Shown piece after piece: positions 3,594-32,863 of a stretch of DNA of 35,620 nt. The DNA comes from an uncultured Ruminococcus sp. (lineage in GTDB: Bacteria > Bacillota > Clostridia > Oscillospirales > CAG-272): contig CADBQA010000073.1 of assembly GCA_902796675.1 (NCBI GenBank), positions 1 through 35,620 of the forward strand, in the 5' to 3' direction. Each line of letters starts with the position of its first letter. The first letter of the stretch is position 1. The notes under the pieces are model-generated. The model was not told where the DNA came from. It did no database searches and saw only the letters and a list, made by a program, of their open reading frames with translations. The translations under genes and the position numbers were made by a program.

Positions 3594-6470
3594 ATGGCTT
3601 TTTGTCCCAACTGCGGTTCAAAGACGGAAGACGGCGCCGTGTTCTGCGGCGTATGCGGCAAGCCGGTCACTCAAAGGACAAATCAGAACGAAGTGATCGA
3701 CAATCTTAAAAAATATCAGACGGCGCCTCGCCGGAACGAAGCGGTCGAGAACCTCAAAAGGTATCAGACGGCGCCCGCGGCGACGCCCGAGGCGCCGCGT
3801 CAGGCGATGCGCCGGCAGTACGCATCTCCCGCCAAGAAAAAGGGCAAAGGGTGGATCGCCGTCGTATCGCTCGTGCTCGCCGCGGCGATCGTCATCGGTA
3901 TATTAGGTTTTCGTGATGGAGGCTGGTTCCGCGGTAAAGACGGAGAAAATACGGCGGTAGTCGGAAACGTTATAAAGACGGAGACGGGAAAGGTCAGCAA
4001 GGATTCCCCCGCCGTCACGCTCTGCGGAGTCACCGTCGACGTCGACGCGCTCATGCTCGGGTCCGGCGAACGCGACGTTTCGGTTTCGGTTTACGAGGGC
4101 GGAGAGGATACGGACGGCTCGCGCTGCGACATCTACGAGCTTGAAATGGGCGACCATGAGGATTTCCGCGTTCCGGTCGAAGTCACGTTCCCGTGTGACG
4201 TCGAATCCGGCGCCGACGTCGTCGTGGAGCACTACGAGGACGGCGCATGGAAACCGCTCATCTCGTTCGTCGATGAGAGCGAGGAGACCGTCAGCGCCTA
4301 TTTCGGCAGTTTTTCTCCCGTAAGGGTCAGCTATCGCAAGGTCGGCGACAATCCGTCTCTTTACTATACGACGACCGATGAAGATAACCCGTATATGGTA
4401 AAGATGGGCGTCAAGTCAAACTATTGGGAAATACTGAAAAGGACCGATCCTTCCGAATATACGGACGAGGTGAAATCGTTTATGGGAGATCCCGAGAATT
4501 TCGCCGTGGAATTTCCGACGCTCGACCCGAAAATGGACGCCAAGGCTGCGTACGAGGCTTTCGTCGGCGTCAACACGATGTGGCCCTTCTGCGACGCTAT
4601 GATAAATCTCGGTATAGAGACCCTTCCTTACTCCTCACAGAGCAAGGTCGTCAGCTTTATGATAGACCACTCGGGCGAGCTCGGCAGCGCCATGAACGCG
4701 ATACCGTTCGTCGCAATGGCGACGCAGGTCGGCTTTGACCTCTATACGGGCGGCAAGGACGCATCGGATAACGCCGCGATAAATCTTTACAAAAATATGC
4801 TCGGAAGCTCGGGTACAATCTACTCCCTCGCGACCGGTTACAGTCATATCGGCTTCACGCTCGCCTTCGTCGGCGTCGCTCTGTTCGGTATGGAGCTGGA
4901 CTATTTCATAGACGCGGCGAAGGAGGCCAAAGCCGAAAACGTCGCCGCCGTTTTCAACGCCTATTATTCGGAGATCAAACCGTTTGACGCCGATCATTGG
5001 TACGACGTTTTCGTCGACGCGTACTGGCGCTCGAACGGCGACGCCGACGCCGCCATGAGGGAGATCAAAAAGGCGGTCGACGACTATTGCGGTAAATTCT
5101 GGACGGAGGTCTACAAAGAGGGCAACGACGACATCATCTTCGCGACGGACGCCGCCGGATACAAAAATGTCTTCTTCAACGCGACTGACGAGCAAAAGCT
5201 CGCGCTCACCGAACAGCAGAAGAGAAAGGTATGGGACCTCATCGAGTCGCAGTCGATGCCGCACATCAAGCGCTTTCTGTTCGCAAGGCTCCAGGAGAAC
5301 ACGCTGAAGGAACTTGCAAAGGCAACCGATCTGTACAACACGGAGCTCTATTTTACGATACAGGAGTCCGTAGATCAGCAGACGACGGAGGTCACGAAAT
5401 ACAAGGGCTGCACCATCTGCCTCGGAAATGCCGGCGTACCGATACCGGAGCTTTACTGGAACGTAGCGGACGACGACAGTCTCGACGACGGCTGGGAGAT
5501 CGAATATGAATGCACCCGCCTCGGCTACCTCAAGATGGGTATGGCGGATCAAGTGCTCGTCTACGAGGACGAGGAGGCGTATAACAACGGCGACAAACCG
5601 CTGGTCACCAAATCGTTTAAGCTCGTCACCGACGGAGACCGCCGCACCGTAATCGAGCTCGGAAGCGGGAATACGCCCGCCACCGGCGCGCCGGAATGGC
5701 TCGAGGGCGCATGGAGCCACACGGCGGGCATCGACGACGAGCAGTACTCGGAGTTCTCGCGGGAGAGCGTAAGGATCACGGTCATCGACGAGGACACTCT
5801 TCTTTACGAGGAATACTATTATCCGAATCCCGGAAAACCCGAATGGAATCACGGCGTGGATTACGCCTTTGAAAGACAGTATTATTACGACGCAAAAACC
5901 GACTGTGTGTTTATACTCAAGACCGAAACCGGCGAATTTGAGGGCGACGTCTTCCCCGGCGTTCACGACAAAGGCTACCTCTCGCCGATAAGGATCGAGC
6001 GTCATCCGGATAAGGATTCGATACACGGGTGTCCCGCCGCGAGGTTCGTTCAGGACCCGAAGGAGATCACCGGCGACGAAAAGACCGAATGGTGGAGCAA
6101 CCTGCGCTTTAACCGCGACTTAAAGGAGTATGACTGGACGTTCAACGGAACGTCTCTCCCCGAGCCCGAAACGAAGGGAAGTGTGACCGAATGGACGGTG
6201 AAGGACGATTCCGTCACGATCCGCCTCGACGGGCTGACGTACGATGAATTCAAGGCGTACTGCGGCAAGCTTCAGGCGATGTCCGGCTGGAAGAGCGAGA
6301 ACGACGAGGATACGGCTCATTTTCCCGCCGATTACAACGACAGAGACAAGGTTTACTTCACCGGGAGCTACAAAAACCTTCCGCACATATCGGCTCAGTA
6401 TTACAGCGACTCGACTGTGAAAGGAAGCGGTCTGCCTCATTTCGTGATATTCGTCTTTACCGAGTGGTAA
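3594..6470 (+). CDS. Large single-pass membrane protein with an N-terminal zinc ribbon (hypothetical)
   Basis: ATG at 3594 (MAFCPNCGSK...CGVCG) is 7 nt after an AAAGGAGA SD, which I prefer to the track start at 3573. TM segment WIAVVSLVLAAAIVIGILGF, then about 850 aa of acidic extracytoplasmic sequence. Confidence 0.85.
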   Translation: MAFCPNCGSKTEDGAVFCGVCGKPVTQRTNQNEVIDNLKKYQTAPRRNEAVENLKRYQTAPAATPEAPRQAMRRQYASPAKKKGKGWIAVVSLVLAAAIVIGILGFRDGGWFRGKDGENTAVVGNVIKTETGKVSKDSPAVTLCGVTVDVDALMLGSGERDVSVSVYEGGEDTDGSRCDIYELEMGDHEDFRVPVEVTFPCDVESGADVVVEHYEDGAWKPLISFVDESEETVSAYFGSFSPVRVSYRKVGDNPSLYYTTTDEDNPYMVKMGVKSNYWEILKRTDPSEYTDEVKSFMGDPENFAVEFPTLDPKMDAKAAYEAFVGVNTMWPFCDAMINLGIETLPYSSQSKVVSFMIDHSGELGSAMNAIPFVAMATQVGFDLYTGGKDASDNAAINLYKNMLGSSGTIYSLATGYSHIGFTLAFVGVALFGMELDYFIDAAKEAKAENVAAVFNAYYSEIKPFDADHWYDVFVDAYWRSNGDADAAMREIKKAVDDYCGKFWTEVYKEGNDDIIFATDAAGYKNVFFNATDEQKLALTEQQKRKVWDLIESQSMPHIKRFLFARLQENTLKELAKATDLYNTELYFTIQESVDQQTTEVTKYKGCTICLGNAGVPIPELYWNVADDDSLDDGWEIEYECTRLGYLKMGMADQVLVYEDEEAYNNGDKPLVTKSFKLVTDGDRRTVIELGSGNTPATGAPEWLEGAWSHTAGIDDEQYSEFSRESVRITVIDEDTLLYEEYYYPNPGKPEWNHGVDYAFERQYYYDAKTDCVFILKTETGEFEGDVFPGVHDKGYLSPIRIERHPDKDSIHGCPAARFVQDPKEITGDEKTEWWSNLRFNRDLKEYDWTFNGTSLPEPETKGSVTEWTVKDDSVTIRLDGLTYDEFKAYCGKLQAMSGWKSENDEDTAHFPADYNDRDKVYFTGSYKNLPHISAQYYSDSTVKGSGLPHFVIFVFTEW

Positions 6471-6559
6471 TTACCGGACGGCAAATAAACGTAAATATCA
6501 AATAATATGAATAAAATACCTTCCGTGTAATATTCTATTACTACACGGGAGGTGTTTTT

Positions 6560-7027
6560 ATGAAAAAAATAAATTGGGGAACCCTTGTTTCTTCGCTCGT
6601 GATACCGCTCGCCGTCGGAGGCGCCGCGGCGCTCATAACGGACGCCGGCGCGGGCTTTTACGACGAGGTGACTCAGCCGCCGCTCTCGCCGCCGTCGTGG
6701 GTGTTTTCGGTGGTATGGACGATACTTTATATCCTGATGGGCGTATCGCTGTACCTTGTGCGCACGTCGGGCGGCGGAAATAAAAGAAGAGCGTACGTCC
6801 TTTTCGGGGCGCAGCTCGCGGTAAACCTTATTTGGAGCATAGTCTTCTTCAACGCGAGGGCGTTTCTCGCAGCGTCCGTTATTATAGTTCTTCTGTGGGC
6901 GCTGATCCTCGCCATGGTCGTTGTTTTCCGCTCCGTGCGTCCGGCGGCGGGGTATCTGCAGTTTCCTTATTTCTTCTGGGTGACGTTTGCCGCGTATCTC
7001 ACCTGGTCGATTTATTATTTGAATTAA
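6560..7027 (+). CDS. tspO: TspO/MBR family tryptophan-rich sensory protein
   Basis: 155 aa with five hydrophobic helices and Trp-rich motifs (PPSWVFSVVWTILYILMG, NLIWSIVFF, FFWVTFAAYLTWSIY). GGGAGG SD upstream. Confidence 0.85.
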   Translation: MKKINWGTLVSSLVIPLAVGGAAALITDAGAGFYDEVTQPPLSPPSWVFSVVWTILYILMGVSLYLVRTSGGGNKRRAYVLFGAQLAVNLIWSIVFFNARAFLAASVIIVLLWALILAMVVVFRSVRPAAGYLQFPYFFWVTFAAYLTWSIYYLN

Positions 7028-9621: not shown

Positions 9622-10106
9622 AAAAGGTTTTGACGGCGTTTCTCGTGTGCCTGCTCACGCTGTCCGTCTTTTCGTGCGGCGAGACGGCGCAGACGGCCGA
9701 AGACGTCAGCCTGTACGAGTTGTCAAAATCCATGCTGTCGGCGGACGAATTTCCCGAGATGGTCACCGTCTCTTCGTCCGACAAGGACGCGAAGGATAAT
9801 TTTCTCTTCCTCTCCGACGTCGACTACGATCTGACGGACGGCTATTTCCTGTCGTACGCTAAGGAGGGCTCCGCATACGAGCTCGCCGTGATAAAGGTCG
9901 CGGATGAGGGCAGCGCGGGAGAGGTCGAGGACTCCCTCGCAAGGCACGTCGCAGGAAGAGTGAATCTTTATAAGAACTACTCCCCGTCCGATCTTCCGCT
10001 CGCAAAGAGCGCCGAGATCGGCTCCGTCGGAAAATACTGCTACCTCATAATGTGCCGCGACACCGCCGCGGTCAGGACGGCGATGCTCGACATGATAAAA
10101 GGATAA
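9618..10106 (+). CDS. Lipoprotein, DUF4358-like
   Basis: MKKVLTAFLVCLLTLSVFSCG is a signal peptide plus lipobox. The start overlaps the previous stop (ATGA). The DUF4358 family call is from memory only. Confidence 0.75.
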   Translation: MKKVLTAFLVCLLTLSVFSCGETAQTAEDVSLYELSKSMLSADEFPEMVTVSSSDKDAKDNFLFLSDVDYDLTDGYFLSYAKEGSAYELAVIKVADEGSAGEVEDSLARHVAGRVNLYKNYSPSDLPLAKSAEIGSVGKYCYLIMCRDTAAVRTAMLDMIKG

Positions 10107-10160
10107 AAAAGACAACCGCCGAATATCGTGAGATATTCGGCGGTTGTCTTTTTGTTTTTT
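10107..10160. terminator. Bidirectional rho-independent terminator
   Basis: AAAAGACAACCGCCGAATATC / GATATTCGGCGGTTGTCTTTT, a stem of about 20 bp. It has an A-tract on one side and a T-tract on the other, between convergent genes. Confidence 0.85.
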
Positions 10161-10171
10161 CTACCTATAAA

Positions 10172-10234
10172 GTAGGGATCGATGCCCACATCGATCCGCA
10201 AAAACCGTAGGGATCGATGCCCACATCGATCCGC
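10172..10234. repeat. Two tandem REP-like hairpin repeats (35-nt period)
   Basis: GTAGGGATCGATGCCCACATCGATCCGC at 10172-10199 and 10207-10234. The 9-bp stem is GGATCGATG/CATCGATCC with loop CCCA. Confidence 0.9.
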
Positions 10235-10249
10235 CGACAATATAATCAA

Positions 10250-10783
10250 TCACAGATCTTTATGATACGGATCATACGCCCATTTGACCGGGTTCTCTTG
10301 GATGTATCTCACCCTGATCATGTAATCATTATAATCTCTTATAATGTGATCGTAGAAGCTTGATTGGAAAATGCTTTTTCCGATCTCCTTTGAAACCAAT
10401 ATCTTATATGAACGGATTGCATTTGAAATATTCTGATTGTTGCTGTCATTGTTCAGAATAATAATTAGATGAATATGGTTAGGCATTATTACATAGCAAT
10501 CAACGCATTTCATTGATAGTATGTACTTTTCCGCAATTTTGCCGATTTGGGTTAATTCGACTCGCGGACCGATGTGGGCATCGGTCCCTACGGTTTTTCG
10601 CGGATCGATGTGGGCATCGATCCCTACGGTTTTTTGCGGACCGATGTGGGCATCGGTCCCTACGGGAATGTGCGACAGAATACATTCGCGATCTTTAGTA
10701 CAAATCGTAATAAAGTATGCGCCGTCATTTGAGTAATCGTATTCTTTCAACCGAAGCCTTTTTCTTTCGGGTAATGATTCCAT
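10250..10783 (-). CDS. REP-associated tyrosine transposase-like (RAYT; IS200/IS605-type Y1 HUH) protein
   Basis: YFITICTKDRE beta-strand, HUH motif MPNHIHLII, and the catalytic-Tyr region SFYDHIIRD...YIQENPVKW. A spot count gives about 28% GC against about 57% in the flanks. Hairpin repeats lie inside and just downstream. Confidence 0.85.
   Translation of the reverse strand: MESLPERKRLRLKEYDYSNDGAYFITICTKDRECILSHIPVGTDAHIGPQKTVGIDAHIDPRKTVGTDAHIGPRVELTQIGKIAEKYILSMKCVDCYVIMPNHIHLIIILNNDSNNQNISNAIRSYKILVSKEIGKSIFQSSFYDHIIRDYNDYMIRVRYIQENPVKWAYDPYHKDL
10564..10663. repeat. Three tandem REP-like hairpin repeats inside the RAYT coding sequence (36-nt period)
   Basis: GCGGA(C/T)CGATGTGGGCATCG(G/A)TCCCTAC at 10564-10591, 10600-10627 and 10636-10663. 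This is the reverse complement of the external copies. It is read in-frame as VGTDAHIGPQKT / VGIDAHIDPRKT / VGTDAHIGPR. Confidence 0.9.
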
Positions 10784-10784
10784 A

Positions 10785-11663
10785 TTATCTTTTGAAGATC
10801 GAAAAGATATCGAAAAGGATATCGCGGCAGGCGCCGGCGGGGTCCCTTCGCGGGTTATACTCGACGACGTCGAGCGAGACGACGGGCACGTCGTCCCAAA
10901 CCGCGCCGAGCGCGTATACCACGTCGGAAAGCGGCAGACTGTCCTTCAGCGCGTACCCGGTCGCCGGAAATTCGTCGCCGCGTATCGAGTCGACGTCGAA
11001 GGAGAGGTGGACGTGCATTCCCTCCGTTGCCCGTATGACCTCGTTTATAACTTCGTCAATACCGCGGCGCTTTACTTCATCCGCGGTGTAGAGGTGAACG
11101 CCCTGTTCTTCGATTATTCCCCATTCGCCCTCGTCGATGCTGTGAGCGCCCACGATGTAGGTGTTCTTGCCGTAAAGGTTTACGCGGCGCTTCCCGACGG
11201 TAAGACGCTCGGTGCAAAGACCCATCGCGGCGGCGAGGGGCATACCGTGTATCATACCGGAGGGCGACGTCGCCTCCGTGTTGATGTCGGCGTGAGCGTC
11301 GATATATATGACCGCGACGCCGTCCGCGCCGTATTTTTCGGATACCGCCGCGACGGACGACATAGCGAGCGAATGGTCGCCGCCGAGAGTCAGGGGTATA
11401 TAACCGTCCGAGAGCGCCTTCGCCGTGCGTCGGTAGTTTTCCCGGCATACCGTCATCACGGTCTCAAGGTGGCGAAGTCTTTCGTCGTGCAGCGTCTCTT
11501 TCGCCGACCTCTCACCGTCGTAAGGCGAGAAGACCGCGGCGTCGCCCATAACGCCCGGAAGACCGTCCGAGACGAGAGCGGAATACGCGTCCTCCGTTCC
11601 CCTTGTCGGGGAACCGACGCTGACGGGCGCTTCGAGTATCAGAAGTTTTTTACCGTTTCTCAT
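10785..11663 (-). CDS. Arginase-family ureohydrolase (arginase-like)
   Basis: Mn-binding motifs GGDHSLA, IYIDAHADINT and SFDVDS, plus SGMIHGMPLAAAMG, which is typical of arginases. Confidence 0.85.
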   Translation of the reverse strand: MRNGKKLLILEAPVSVGSPTRGTEDAYSALVSDGLPGVMGDAAVFSPYDGERSAKETLHDERLRHLETVMTVCRENYRRTAKALSDGYIPLTLGGDHSLAMSSVAAVSEKYGADGVAVIYIDAHADINTEATSPSGMIHGMPLAAAMGLCTERLTVGKRRVNLYGKNTYIVGAHSIDEGEWGIIEEQGVHLYTADEVKRRGIDEVINEVIRATEGMHVHLSFDVDSIRGDEFPATGYALKDSLPLSDVVYALGAVWDDVPVVSLDVVEYNPRRDPAGACRDILFDIFSIFKR

Positions 11664-32522: not shown

Positions 32523-32759
32523 TTCGAGCCCTTGCCTCATCTCCACCAAAAAAGGCAGCTGACGCCGTCAAAAAATGAATTGAGGGGGCTCGCTCGGCGC
32601 ACTACCGTGCGCCGACACGCCAACGGGAACCCCCGAAATCCGCGCGCGGATTTTGGGGAACCCCTATGTCGGCGAAAAACAGTCCCCCGGACTGTTTTTC
32701 TTCCGAAAACTCCTGCGGAGTTTTCTCCCTCCTTTTCGAGCCCTGACCTCATCTCCACA
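32523..32759. repeat. Hairpin-dense tRNA-Val trailer with duplicated fragments of the tRNA 3' end
   Basis: TTCGAGCCCTTGCCTCATCTCCACCA (32523-48) and TTCGAGCCCTGACCTCATCTCCACA (32735-59) mirror the tRNA 3' end on the opposite strand. GAGGGGGCTCG (32582-92) is a same-strand fragment. Hairpins lie at 32631-58, 32675-99 and 32705-25. Confidence 0.75.
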
Positions 32760-32786
32760 AAAAAAGACGGCATTAGCCGTCTTTTT
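32759..32786. terminator. Bidirectional terminator directly after tRNA-Val
   Basis: AAAAAAGACGGC-ATTA-GCCGTCTTTTTT. Confidence 0.8.
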
Positions 32787-32863
32787 TGGTGGAGATGAGG
32801 GGGCTCGAACCCATGACCTCTCGGATGTGAACCGAACGCTCTGACCAGCTGAGCTACACCTCC
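32787..32863 (-). tRNA. tRNA-Val (anticodon CAC)
   Basis: Folded by hand. Acceptor GGAGGTG/CATCTCC, D arm GCTC/GAGC, anticodon arm TTCGG-TTCACAT-CCGAG, T loop TTCGAGC with one U-C mismatch in the T stem, and an encoded CCA. Confidence 0.88.

Follow-up and report, generated by a model that had tools for sequence, protein, structure and literature searches.

REP-like hairpins inside and just past the reading frame of a predicted REP-associated tyrosine transposase gene in an uncultured Ruminococcus

To our knowledge, the role of REP-associated tyrosine transposases (RAYTs) in vivo and the way in which repetitive extragenic palindromes (REPs) spread are still open, and the cleavage and rejoining of REPs is known only in vitro, for a few proteobacterial enzymes. 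REPs flank RAYT genes (Nunvar 2010; Corneloup 2021, PMC8266576), and the E. coli TnpAREP cuts and rejoins at the REP foot in vitro, according to the latter paper. For subclass 2.4 of the tnpAREP genes, REPs lying in frame inside the gene were reported as a unique feature (Quentin et al. 2018, BMC Genomics 19:475, PMC6006769), together with a variable, repeat-containing insertion between β3 and αC that these authors judge peripheral to DNA binding. Term searches aimed at REPs within the RAYT reading frame gave no such passage in Nunvar 2010, Corneloup 2021 and Bertels 2017, and REPs in frame within other genes were described by Di Nocera et al. 2013 (PMC3733652). Here we analyzed a window of 35,620 nt (contig CADBQA010000073.1 of assembly GCA_902796675.1, from an uncultured Ruminococcus sp.; Clostridia, CAG-272), in which a RAYT-type gene carries three REP-like hairpins in its reading frame and is followed by two more.

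We read this locus, with a probability of roughly 60%, as a REPtron, in which a single-copy RAYT is accompanied by its cognate GTAG-headed REPs, and the in-gene copies come from amplification in cis and are tolerated in permissive loops. An earlier note on this DNA, made from its letters alone, had called the configuration unusual; it is not without precedent, since in-frame REPs in subclass 2.4 had already been reported, and the core idea of the present finding is thus already in Quentin 2018. What the window offers, and this is well supported, is a clear further example of in-gene REPs with added detail. As far as the text of Quentin 2018 available to us extends, it does not contain a site between β1 and αA, the fixed-frame inverted pairing of two sites (A and B below), covariation, slow evolution, strain-level array dynamics or the Clostridia setting.

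The gene and its hairpins occupy the following positions in the window:

10250..10783, minus strand: RAYT / TnpAREP-type Y1 HUH nuclease gene, 177 aa, assigned from the translation of its open reading frame (ORF) with profile and fold evidence
10469-10477, minus strand: HUH motif H103-I-H105, within the RAYT ORF
10304-10306, minus strand: catalytic Tyr160, within the RAYT ORF
10636..10663, minus strand: in-gene REP copy 1 (counted in the coding direction), ACC/GGT variant, encoding V41-G-T-D-A-H-I-G-P49 and the first base of the Q50 codon
10600..10627, minus strand: in-gene REP copy 2, ATC/GAT variant, encoding V53-G-I-D-A-H-I-D-P61
10564..10591, minus strand: in-gene REP copy 3, ACC/GGT variant, encoding V65-G-T-D-A-H-I-G-P73; the apparently ancestral site A copy, found in nearly all homologues
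10562..10669, minus strand: in-frame tandem array of three 36-nt units, each a REP with an 8-nt spacer (AAAAAACC and GAAAAACC), in the β1-αA loop predicted to be disordered
10172-10199, plus strand: external REP, ATC/GAT variant
10207-10234, plus strand: external REP, ATC/GAT variant
10172..10234, plus strand: the external REP pair, head-to-tail with a 35-nt period, 16-78 nt past the RAYT stop in the presumed 3' untranslated region (UTR)

The window was searched with the degenerate 28-mer GTAGGGAYCGATGCCCACATCGRTCCGC at up to three mismatches, with 100 dinucleotide shuffles as the control. Exactly five matches were obtained, against a shuffle expectation of 0.00. They are the two 28-nt units with a 35-nt period 3' of the gene and the three reverse-complement copies with a 36-nt period in the ORF that the earlier note had described, and coordinates and translation agree with its statement that the frame stays open ahead of the HUH motif. 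The minus-strand translation reads ...YFITICTKDRECILSHIPVGTDAHIGPQKTVGIDAHIDPRKTVGTDAHIGPRVELTQ...MPNHIHLII..., or in parts ...GAYFITICTKDRECILSHIP VGTDAHIGPQKT VGIDAHIDPRKT VGTDAHIGPR VELTQ...YVIMPNHIHLII..., and the protein ends 17 aa after Y160. Both stem variants, ACC/GGT and ATC/GAT, fold into hairpins of 9 bp with a tetranucleotide loop (-9.2 to -10.7 kcal/mol as DNA; z -3.9 to -5.7), bearing out the claim that the paired changes preserve the hairpin. The external REPs are inverted relative to the in-gene REPs, giving the REPtron layout of GTAG-headed palindromes in inverted orientation, three on the minus strand in the gene and two on the plus strand after the stop. Neither further REP copies nor other GTAG-headed hairpins were found in the 35.6-kb window, and no Rfam family matched at the RAYT locus, the only matches window-wide being two tRNAs.

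Identification of the gene as a RAYT-type Y1 enzyme, already proposed from its letters, was supported by sequence and fold searches. A PDB profile search with 63 homologues returned the E. coli TnpAREP structure 4ER8 as its sole sequence match (E 1.3e-10), and 4ER8 was also the top Foldseek match of an AlphaFold model of the protein (E 3.3e-6, template modelling score 0.52-0.56, ~20% identity), followed by the ISDra2, IS608 and IS200 TnpA structures (E 2e-4 to 1e-3). The work on 4ER8 is reportedly that of Messing (2012) and of Ton-Hoang. H103, H105 and Y160 are invariant in alignments of 27 (A1) and 63 (A2) sequences. The residues of 4ER8 that contact GTAG, W94/Q95/W99/E100/H101/R104 by the labels of Fig. 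S11 of Quentin 2018 (PMC6006769), align with F139/Q140/Y144/D145/H146/R149 of the window protein. Q140, D145, H146 and R149 are invariant in A1, and in A2 Q140 and R149 are invariant while D145 and H146 are at least 90% conserved; the family consensus has W at the position of F139. Because of the 4ER8 match, the invariant HUH and tyrosine residues and the GTAG-contact residues, the gene is assigned as a RAYT-type nuclease with its predicted catalytic and GTAG-recognition residues in place.

The in-gene array falls in the least ordered part of the AlphaFold model, which has an overall predicted local distance difference test (pLDDT) score of 79. Core blocks 21-40 and 81-110 average above 90, and residues 41-75 score 36-49 and are without predicted secondary structure. 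The surface loop that the earlier note had expected from structure prediction is thus modelled as unstructured, and residues ~41-75 probably form a permissive, disordered β1-αA loop.

Embedding of the hairpin is a property of the whole family. The homologue set comprised 5,440 sequences, and DNA was sampled at 80 metagenomic loci (L119-L198; 29-46% identity) with 56 non-redundant genes. V-G-x-D-A-H-I-x-P is a native, single-copy feature among the homologues, with V65, G66 and P73 at least 90% conserved. At the DNA level, this site A is a sense hairpin (GTAGGG-stem-loop-stem) between β1 and the HUH motif. An inverted copy, site B, lies after the HUH motif and is read as G-x-M-W-A-S-x-P-T, the antisense translation of the site-A hairpin; VGHDAHIVP at site A, for example, predicts GTMWASCPT at site B, and VGADAHIGP predicts GPMWASAPT. 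Both sites were found in 38 of the 56 genes, site B only in 4, site A only in 2 and neither in 12, and the commonest A-to-B distance is 174 nt. One and the same reading frame is used in 40 of 41 cases at site A and 41 of 43 at site B, and independent repeated insertions in different frames were rejected for this reason. GTAG-headed hairpins occur at 2.97 per kb in the gene versus 0.26 per kb outside.

The stems are wholly different between lineages (GGGCGACCAGTGGTCGCCC, GGCGGGATGCCCTCATCCCGCC, GGGACGCCGCCTTCGGCGTCCC and others), and the GTAGGG head is invariant. In two alignments of in-gene hairpins, 7 of 9 stem pairs and 5 of 8, respectively, had double changes; because their input was chosen as hairpins, the percent-paired figure from these alignments is circular, and we therefore relied on two tests at the protein level, with sequences unselected for hairpins. 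Residues 3 and 8 of the nonapeptide pair by a reverse-complement codon rule (T/G, I/D, H/V, A/G, S/A, Q/L, D/V, C/A, N/V) and are compatible with it in 35 of 46 distinct 9-mers, compared with 13.2±2.7 after shuffling, a value of 35 being reached in 0 of 2000 shuffles. In 31 of 103 cluster representatives, compared with 7 of 204 mismatched controls, at least 7 aa of the site B peptide could be decoded as the reverse complement of site A; the representatives were drawn from 50%-identity clusters, of which the family has 1,174 at E≤1e-30.

The earlier note had considered a REP insertion into a tolerant loop. The loop stands, as a low-confidence, unstructured segment of the AlphaFold model, but a recent insertion does not: in the homologue alignment that it had called for, one VGxDAHIxP copy is native and near-invariant, and only the extra one or two 36-nt units appear recent. 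Its choice between a native peptide and a repeat insertion also fails as an exclusive one, for the homologues carry the peptide, yet it is encoded by covarying palindromic DNA.

Genes with both in-gene sites mostly lack copies outside, 34 of 38 being without a REP within 300 nt downstream. The sole A-only gene with 3' sequence has a minus-orientation copy 16-18 nt after its stop, as in the window lineage, and 3 of the 4 B-only genes have a downstream plus-orientation copy. The impression is of a single inverted pair being kept, inside the frame or outside it.

Two further observations concern the in-gene hairpins of other lineages. Among 25 distinct in-gene 26-nt REPs, 11 share a mid-stem position without Watson-Crick pairing (alignment A3 columns 11/20, e.g. 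GGGGCGACG/CGACGCCCC), and this shared position may reflect a conserved class of mismatch or bulge, or a different true fold. Locus L007, an exception to the single-copy state, has two adjacent RAYT paralogues (4095-4580 and 6198-6665), each with its own REP type at both in-gene sites and each then followed by a further REP; their peptides are VGEGLCALP/GGHGGPPLQ and VGGDAHIAP/GPMWASVPT, and the two genes are a natural specificity pair.

The hairpins change more slowly than the sequence around them. Between the window and contig L199, from another species with a RAYT 71% identical, the columns of the two REPs common to both are identical at 56/56 positions versus 401/505 (79%) for other aligned columns, coding and non-coding together, and two further, independent orthologue comparisons gave 46/46 versus 83-84% and 45/46 versus 90%. 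In-gene REPs thus evolve more slowly than nearby codons, and therefore nucleic-acid constraint overrides protein-coding constraint there. At deep divergence the stems are replaced outright. Stem pairing inside the gene is no less perfect than in extragenic copies (60/88 versus 63/122). It is the DNA hairpin that is conserved and not the peptide, and the encoded residues follow the stem.

Copy number at the locus varies between alleles:

L199 allele (other species): one in-gene copy, one downstream copy
L205 allele (otherwise near-identical to the window): one in-gene copy, at least four downstream copies
L202 allele: two in-gene copies, two downstream copies
window allele: three in-gene copies, two downstream copies

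All four alleles have the ACC/GGT stem in the ancestral in-gene copy and ATC/GAT downstream of the gene, and in L199, L202 and L205 the downstream REPs are of the same variant and at the same position, 18 nt after the stop. In-gene copy 1 of the window is an extra copy, missing from the one- and two-copy alleles. In-gene copy 2 with its spacer (10600-10634) is an exact inverted copy, 35/35, of the external unit AAAAACC+REP at 10200-10234, and the in-gene unit is this 35-nt module lengthened by one spacer base, so that the frame is restored. From the ATC/GAT stem of the middle copy and this inverted identity, it follows that the stem difference records exchange between the two inverted arrays. 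Of the changes that had been described as compensatory, the preserved pairing holds and evolution in situ does not, since ACC/GGT belongs to the in-gene lineage and ATC/GAT to the downstream lineage, and the middle copy was imported. On sequence comparison, the additional 36-nt units (one or two per allele) appear to be recent and the site A copy ancestral. A separate lineage, L206, has ten identical 26-nt REPs at its RAYT locus (10136-10854): site A holds five of them in tandem and in frame (42-nt period), site B holds one in antisense, and four follow the stop (45-nt period). Its 20 kb contain no others.

A 26-mer form of the REP was sought in one genome per species. It was found in at least 118 stretches from at least 15 assemblies, mostly Acutalibacteraceae, Oscillospiraceae and metagenome-assembled genomes (MAGs) of unclassified Clostridia. 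None of the 118 stretches overlaps the window, whose exact RAYT protein is likewise not on record. At up to four mismatches there were at least 228 copies, at least 93 of them in MAG JAZSPR01 and at least 71 in JAFYVE01. The dominant dispersed variant is ACC/GGT, and other stem-preserving paired variants include AGC/GCT, ATC/GAT, CCC/GGG, AAC/GTT, CAC/GTG and TGC/GCA. Among the matches listed, 207 of 228 copies (91%) lie outside long ORFs, although such ORFs span ~84% of the sequence. The hairpin is a genuine repetitive extragenic palindrome family, and the earlier description of it as REP-like is confirmed by its dispersed, mostly intergenic copies in these other Clostridia MAGs.

Convergent doublets are the commonest arrangement, with 63 among the matches listed, mostly 143-144 nt start to start; each makes up a ~170-nt element whose spacer is conserved and which occurs in both orientations. 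Such an element is a REPIN-like (REP doublet) or MITE-like (miniature inverted-repeat transposable element) unit, its REPIN character being found in the other genomes only, and no REPIN-type doublet was seen in the window outside the RAYT locus. It is the main dispersed form in JAZSPR01 and JAFYVE01 (e.g. L002 7764-7933 and L004 6395-6563), and consists of a REP, a conserved AT-rich spacer of ~117 nt with two internal hairpins, and an inverted REP; doublets at 48-50-nt spacing are also present. A decayed A-to-B segment of a RAYT gene, which has a similar spacing (141-144 nt) in L007 and L207, was considered as a source of the doublet and rejected; comparison of the doublet spacers with RAYT genes by blastn and tblastx gave only short AT-rich matches, with E ~0.004 or higher among the matches listed. 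A RAYT gene in JAFYVE01 (L027, 3352-4211) has classical flanks, a complete REPIN following 21 nt behind the stop and a REP preceding the gene, and its annotated ORF seems to be N-terminally truncated. The REP also occurs on several contigs of assemblies labelled Bifidobacteriaceae, Bacteroides or Bacteroidales (L003/L034/L062 of CAVIFY; L010/L037/L040/L110 of CAYNGP; L033 of CALCUQ), which are most likely mis-binned and not cases of REPs crossing phyla.

The genomic surroundings of the RAYT gene include two further features:

10785..11663, minus strand: arginase-family gene, directly upstream of the RAYT gene
10106..10153, no strand assigned: bidirectional intrinsic-terminator-like hairpin with a 22-bp stem, beyond the external REPs

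The stop codon of the arginase-family gene (10785-10787) and the RAYT start codon (ATG, 10781-10783) form a 1-nt junction. The operon runs from a Mur-ligase-like gene through Asn-synthase-like, ATP-grasp and arginase-family genes to the RAYT gene in last place, and the terminator-like hairpin is shared by this operon and a convergent lipoprotein gene. Gene order and the 1-nt junction are identical in L199, and the RAYT gene is therefore taken to be vertically inherited at a fixed locus. Homologue P0015, indexed in 110 blocks of the collection, sits in one single context in all four places shown. No RAYT relative was found among 72,556 plasmids, and phage-labelled records gave one match, an unannotated 4.8-kb contig; plasmid or phage carriage was rejected accordingly. 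The RAYT is thus single-copy, vertically inherited and chromosomal, with a housekeeping-like distribution of the kind used as a criterion by Bertels 2017.

In the window, L199, L206 and L207, the RAYT gene is always the last same-strand gene, behind a housekeeping-type gene (junctions at L199 9999-10001 and at 9976-10001 of L206 and L207); in the L206 and L207 lineages a ThrRS gene and an APH gene take the preceding place, 24 nt away. This position suggests read-through or coupled low-level expression. The GC content of the window RAYT gene is 40%, versus 53% for the window. Across the family, 48 of 50 loci have a RAYT gene with more AT than the sequence on either side (mean difference -7.9 GC points), a bias that persists despite synteny and the GC-rich hairpins and that might reflect selection for poor codon usage and low expression. 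Recent horizontal acquisition was rejected as its cause, given the AT-richness in 48 of 50 loci and the synteny with a species whose RAYT is 71% identical. Elsewhere in the window, tRNA-3'-end-like sequence (TTCGAGCCC..CTCATCTCCAC(C)A) occurs on the plus strand at 32523-32569 and 32735-32781, each copy being followed by a hairpin. The copies adjoin tRNA-Val (32787-32863, minus strand), with whose 3' end one of them forms a 25-nt inverted repeat, and they may be attachment-site remnants or a terminator built on a tRNA end.

For the REPtron we propose the following model. RAYT genes normally have an inverted REP pair at their flanks. In this Clostridia family the pair would sit inside the reading frame; the window lineage would have lost site B and kept inverted copies just past the stop instead. 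In analogy to the E. coli TnpAREP in vitro, the RAYT would bind REPs on single-stranded DNA and cut and rejoin at their foot, and, judging by where the REPs lie, it may act preferentially on the copies nearest its own gene. Such local action would homogenise the REPs and amplify modules of REP plus spacer. Inside the gene only in-frame lengths would survive, which is consistent with units of 36 nt in the gene versus 35 nt outside. The three in-gene copies of the window would then represent recent local amplification together with exchange with the downstream array, and their placement in the gene is probably without a catalytic role.

Several observations weigh against this model or loosen its fit. 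The protein scores below the cutoffs of the curated profiles (63.4 bits versus 80 for NCBIfam REP_Tyr_transpos, NF047646; 16.5 bits versus 23 for Pfam Y1_Tnp, PF01797), which cover the C-terminal half of the RAYT alone; relative to these profiles the family is a divergent branch. Dispersed REPs are absent from the window (35.6 kb) and from L199 (20 kb), and high-copy status is seen in other MAGs only. In one of those REP-rich MAGs, JAFYVE01, the L027 RAYT has no in-gene REPs. The allele copy numbers come from short-read metagenome contigs, of which L203, L204 and L205 end at or within the arrays, and for this reason some of the differences may be due to assembly. Action of the RAYT in cis is read from the location of the REPs and from nothing else. 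Finally, a selected function would account for the slow evolution of the in-gene REPs and for the kept inverted partner no less well than neutral tolerance would.

That last point leads to the rival that survives best, a possible but doubtful one, in which the in-gene hairpins are a selected cis-regulatory device. A sense and an inverted REP in the mRNA or in single-stranded DNA would throttle the RAYT, by negative autoregulation or RNase III-type cleavage, as a long REPIN-like duplex or a RAYT-binding site, with site B or the 3'-UTR copies as the inverted partner. The slower evolution of the in-gene REPs relative to surrounding codons and their stems, at least as perfect as extragenic ones, are consistent with such a device, as is the inverted partner often kept in the same transcription unit, both as the A+B pair of 38 of 56 genes and given that 34 of those 38 have no copy downstream. 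The external REPs stand before the bidirectional terminator, and the gene has hallmarks of low expression in its AT-richness (48/50 loci) and its start 1 nt after the upstream stop. The hairpin is nevertheless dispensable, since 12 of 56 homologues have none, and in many genes sites A and B differ by 2-11 mismatches, which would weaken long-range pairing. In a predicted fold of 10100-10700 (minus strand), in-gene copies 1-2 and the two 3' copies form a ~63-bp duplex (minimum free energy -257 versus -145±6.7 kcal/mol shuffled, z -16.8); this is not independent support, because any inverted REP pair would fold likewise. Strict Watson-Crick stems in both orientations with an invariant GTAG head fit DNA recognition and not RNA structure.

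Related to this, and likewise held only tentatively, is the idea that the inverted pair, in effect a REPIN in the RAYT frame, is under purifying selection at the DNA level as a functional part. If so, the in-frame pair would bracket the HUH-coding segment and, in the window lineage, the whole catalytic two-thirds of the gene. One possible role is then autoregulation, with the pair as a site at which the enzyme binds or cleaves its own gene; another is that of a protected master copy that co-inherits specificity and substrate and can reseed genomic REPs; in either role the family would offer a natural handle on RAYT function in vivo.

An origin of the arrays without the RAYT, by slippage, template switching or gene conversion, with the hairpins serving mainly as terminators or mRNA stabilisers, is unlikely. 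The exact inverted copy of the downstream REP and spacer inside the gene is what template switching from one inverted repeat to another would leave, the period is 1 nt longer in the gene than outside, the A/T runs of the spacers could slip, and REP+GGTTTTT scores as terminator-like. Such an origin leaves unexplained why GTAG hairpins occupy the same two loops in one family of 1,174 clusters, why each L007 paralogue has its own REP type, and why conservation of the GTAG head goes along with that of the GTAG-contact residues; slippage, moreover, is unable to create the first duplicate from a single copy. Selection of VGxDAHIxP as a peptide repeat, for example for metal or DNA binding, with an incidental palindrome, is very improbable and close to refuted: V, G and P are at least 90% conserved, D-A-H-I is common in close homologues and Pfam gives a weak Hexapep-like match, but across the family the peptide is replaced fully (VGATSGRP, VGRDALIPP, VGDAAFGVP and others) over DNA that still forms a perfect GTAG hairpin, the covariation of residues 3 and 8 obeys the reverse-complement codon rule, the antisense reading of the same DNA is the site-B peptide, and the segment is predicted to be disordered and is missing from 12 of 56 homologues.

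Since each gene of the Clostridia family spells its own cognate hairpin, enzyme and substrate are physically linked. REP-RAYT specificity pairs can thereby be read from protein sequence alone, and the family amounts to hundreds of natural enzyme/hairpin covariation pairs. The length of the locus varies between near-identical gut strains, which is a possible read-out of activity. For annotation, low-complexity peptides in such 'transposases' (VGADAHIGP, GPMWASAPT) should be recognised as translated REPs.

Compared with known systems, the locus shares features with several. Like the Rickettsia palindromic elements (RPEs) and the REPs of Di Nocera et al., its short palindromes are accommodated in surface loops without a break of the frame, and their translation yields peptides derived from the element; those elements sit sporadically in unrelated host genes, whereas in the Clostridia family the palindromes lie in the gene for their own presumed enzyme, at sites conserved throughout a large family. 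IS200/IS605 TnpA proteins have a related fold and recognise hairpins on single-stranded DNA. Their elements are multi-copy and mobile, with end hairpins on the same strand outside the gene, in contrast to the single syntenic locus of the window with its inverted hairpins partly in the ORF; identity as an IS200/IS605 insertion sequence was rejected on these grounds and for lack of plasmid copies. The Pseudomonas REPIN-RAYT system (Bertels & Rainey 2011, PMC3116915; Bertels 2017, PMC5581495) is alike in its dispersed inverted doublets, as in JAZSPR01 and JAFYVE01, and in a RAYT that is single-copy, vertical and off plasmids. Pseudomonas REPINs flank the RAYT gene, whereas the Clostridia inverted pair brackets the HUH segment within the ORF, and the window lineage was seen without a dispersed population.

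With the E. coli TnpAREP (4ER8) and its REPs, arranged as bacterial interspersed mosaic elements (REP-BIME), the family shares the HUH/Y1 fold, the catalytic tyrosine, the GTAG contacts, the 5' GTAG head, the single-copy chromosomal state and inverted REPs. The E. coli REPs, in contrast, are palindromes with imperfections and bulges, located beside the gene and never in its frame, and the E. coli protein is without the ~9-aa site-B segment and the β1-αA insertion of the Clostridia family. Five REP sequences of the family, including the 12-nt core of the window REP, gave no match in the supplementary REP table of Quentin 2018. By its published description (PMC6006769), subclass 2.4 is what the Clostridia family resembles: both have in-frame REPs, the canonical GTAG and patchy taxonomy, they may also be alike in a G-C-rich stem bottom (e.g. 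GTAGGGGCGACCCTTGCGGTCGCCC) and in having no C-terminal extension, and site B of the Clostridia family lies in the same loop after the HuH strand as the β3-αC insertion. Most REPs of the family are of the form GTAG-GGG...CCC and match REPs listed for subclass 2.4, which have three G-C pairs at the stem bottom, compared with two G-C pairs and one A-T pair in the window REP (GGA/TCC). The emphasis in the published account of subclass 2.4 is on REPs between HuH and Y, whereas the window, from a gut Clostridia host, has all three copies before the HUH motif, in the β1-αA loop.

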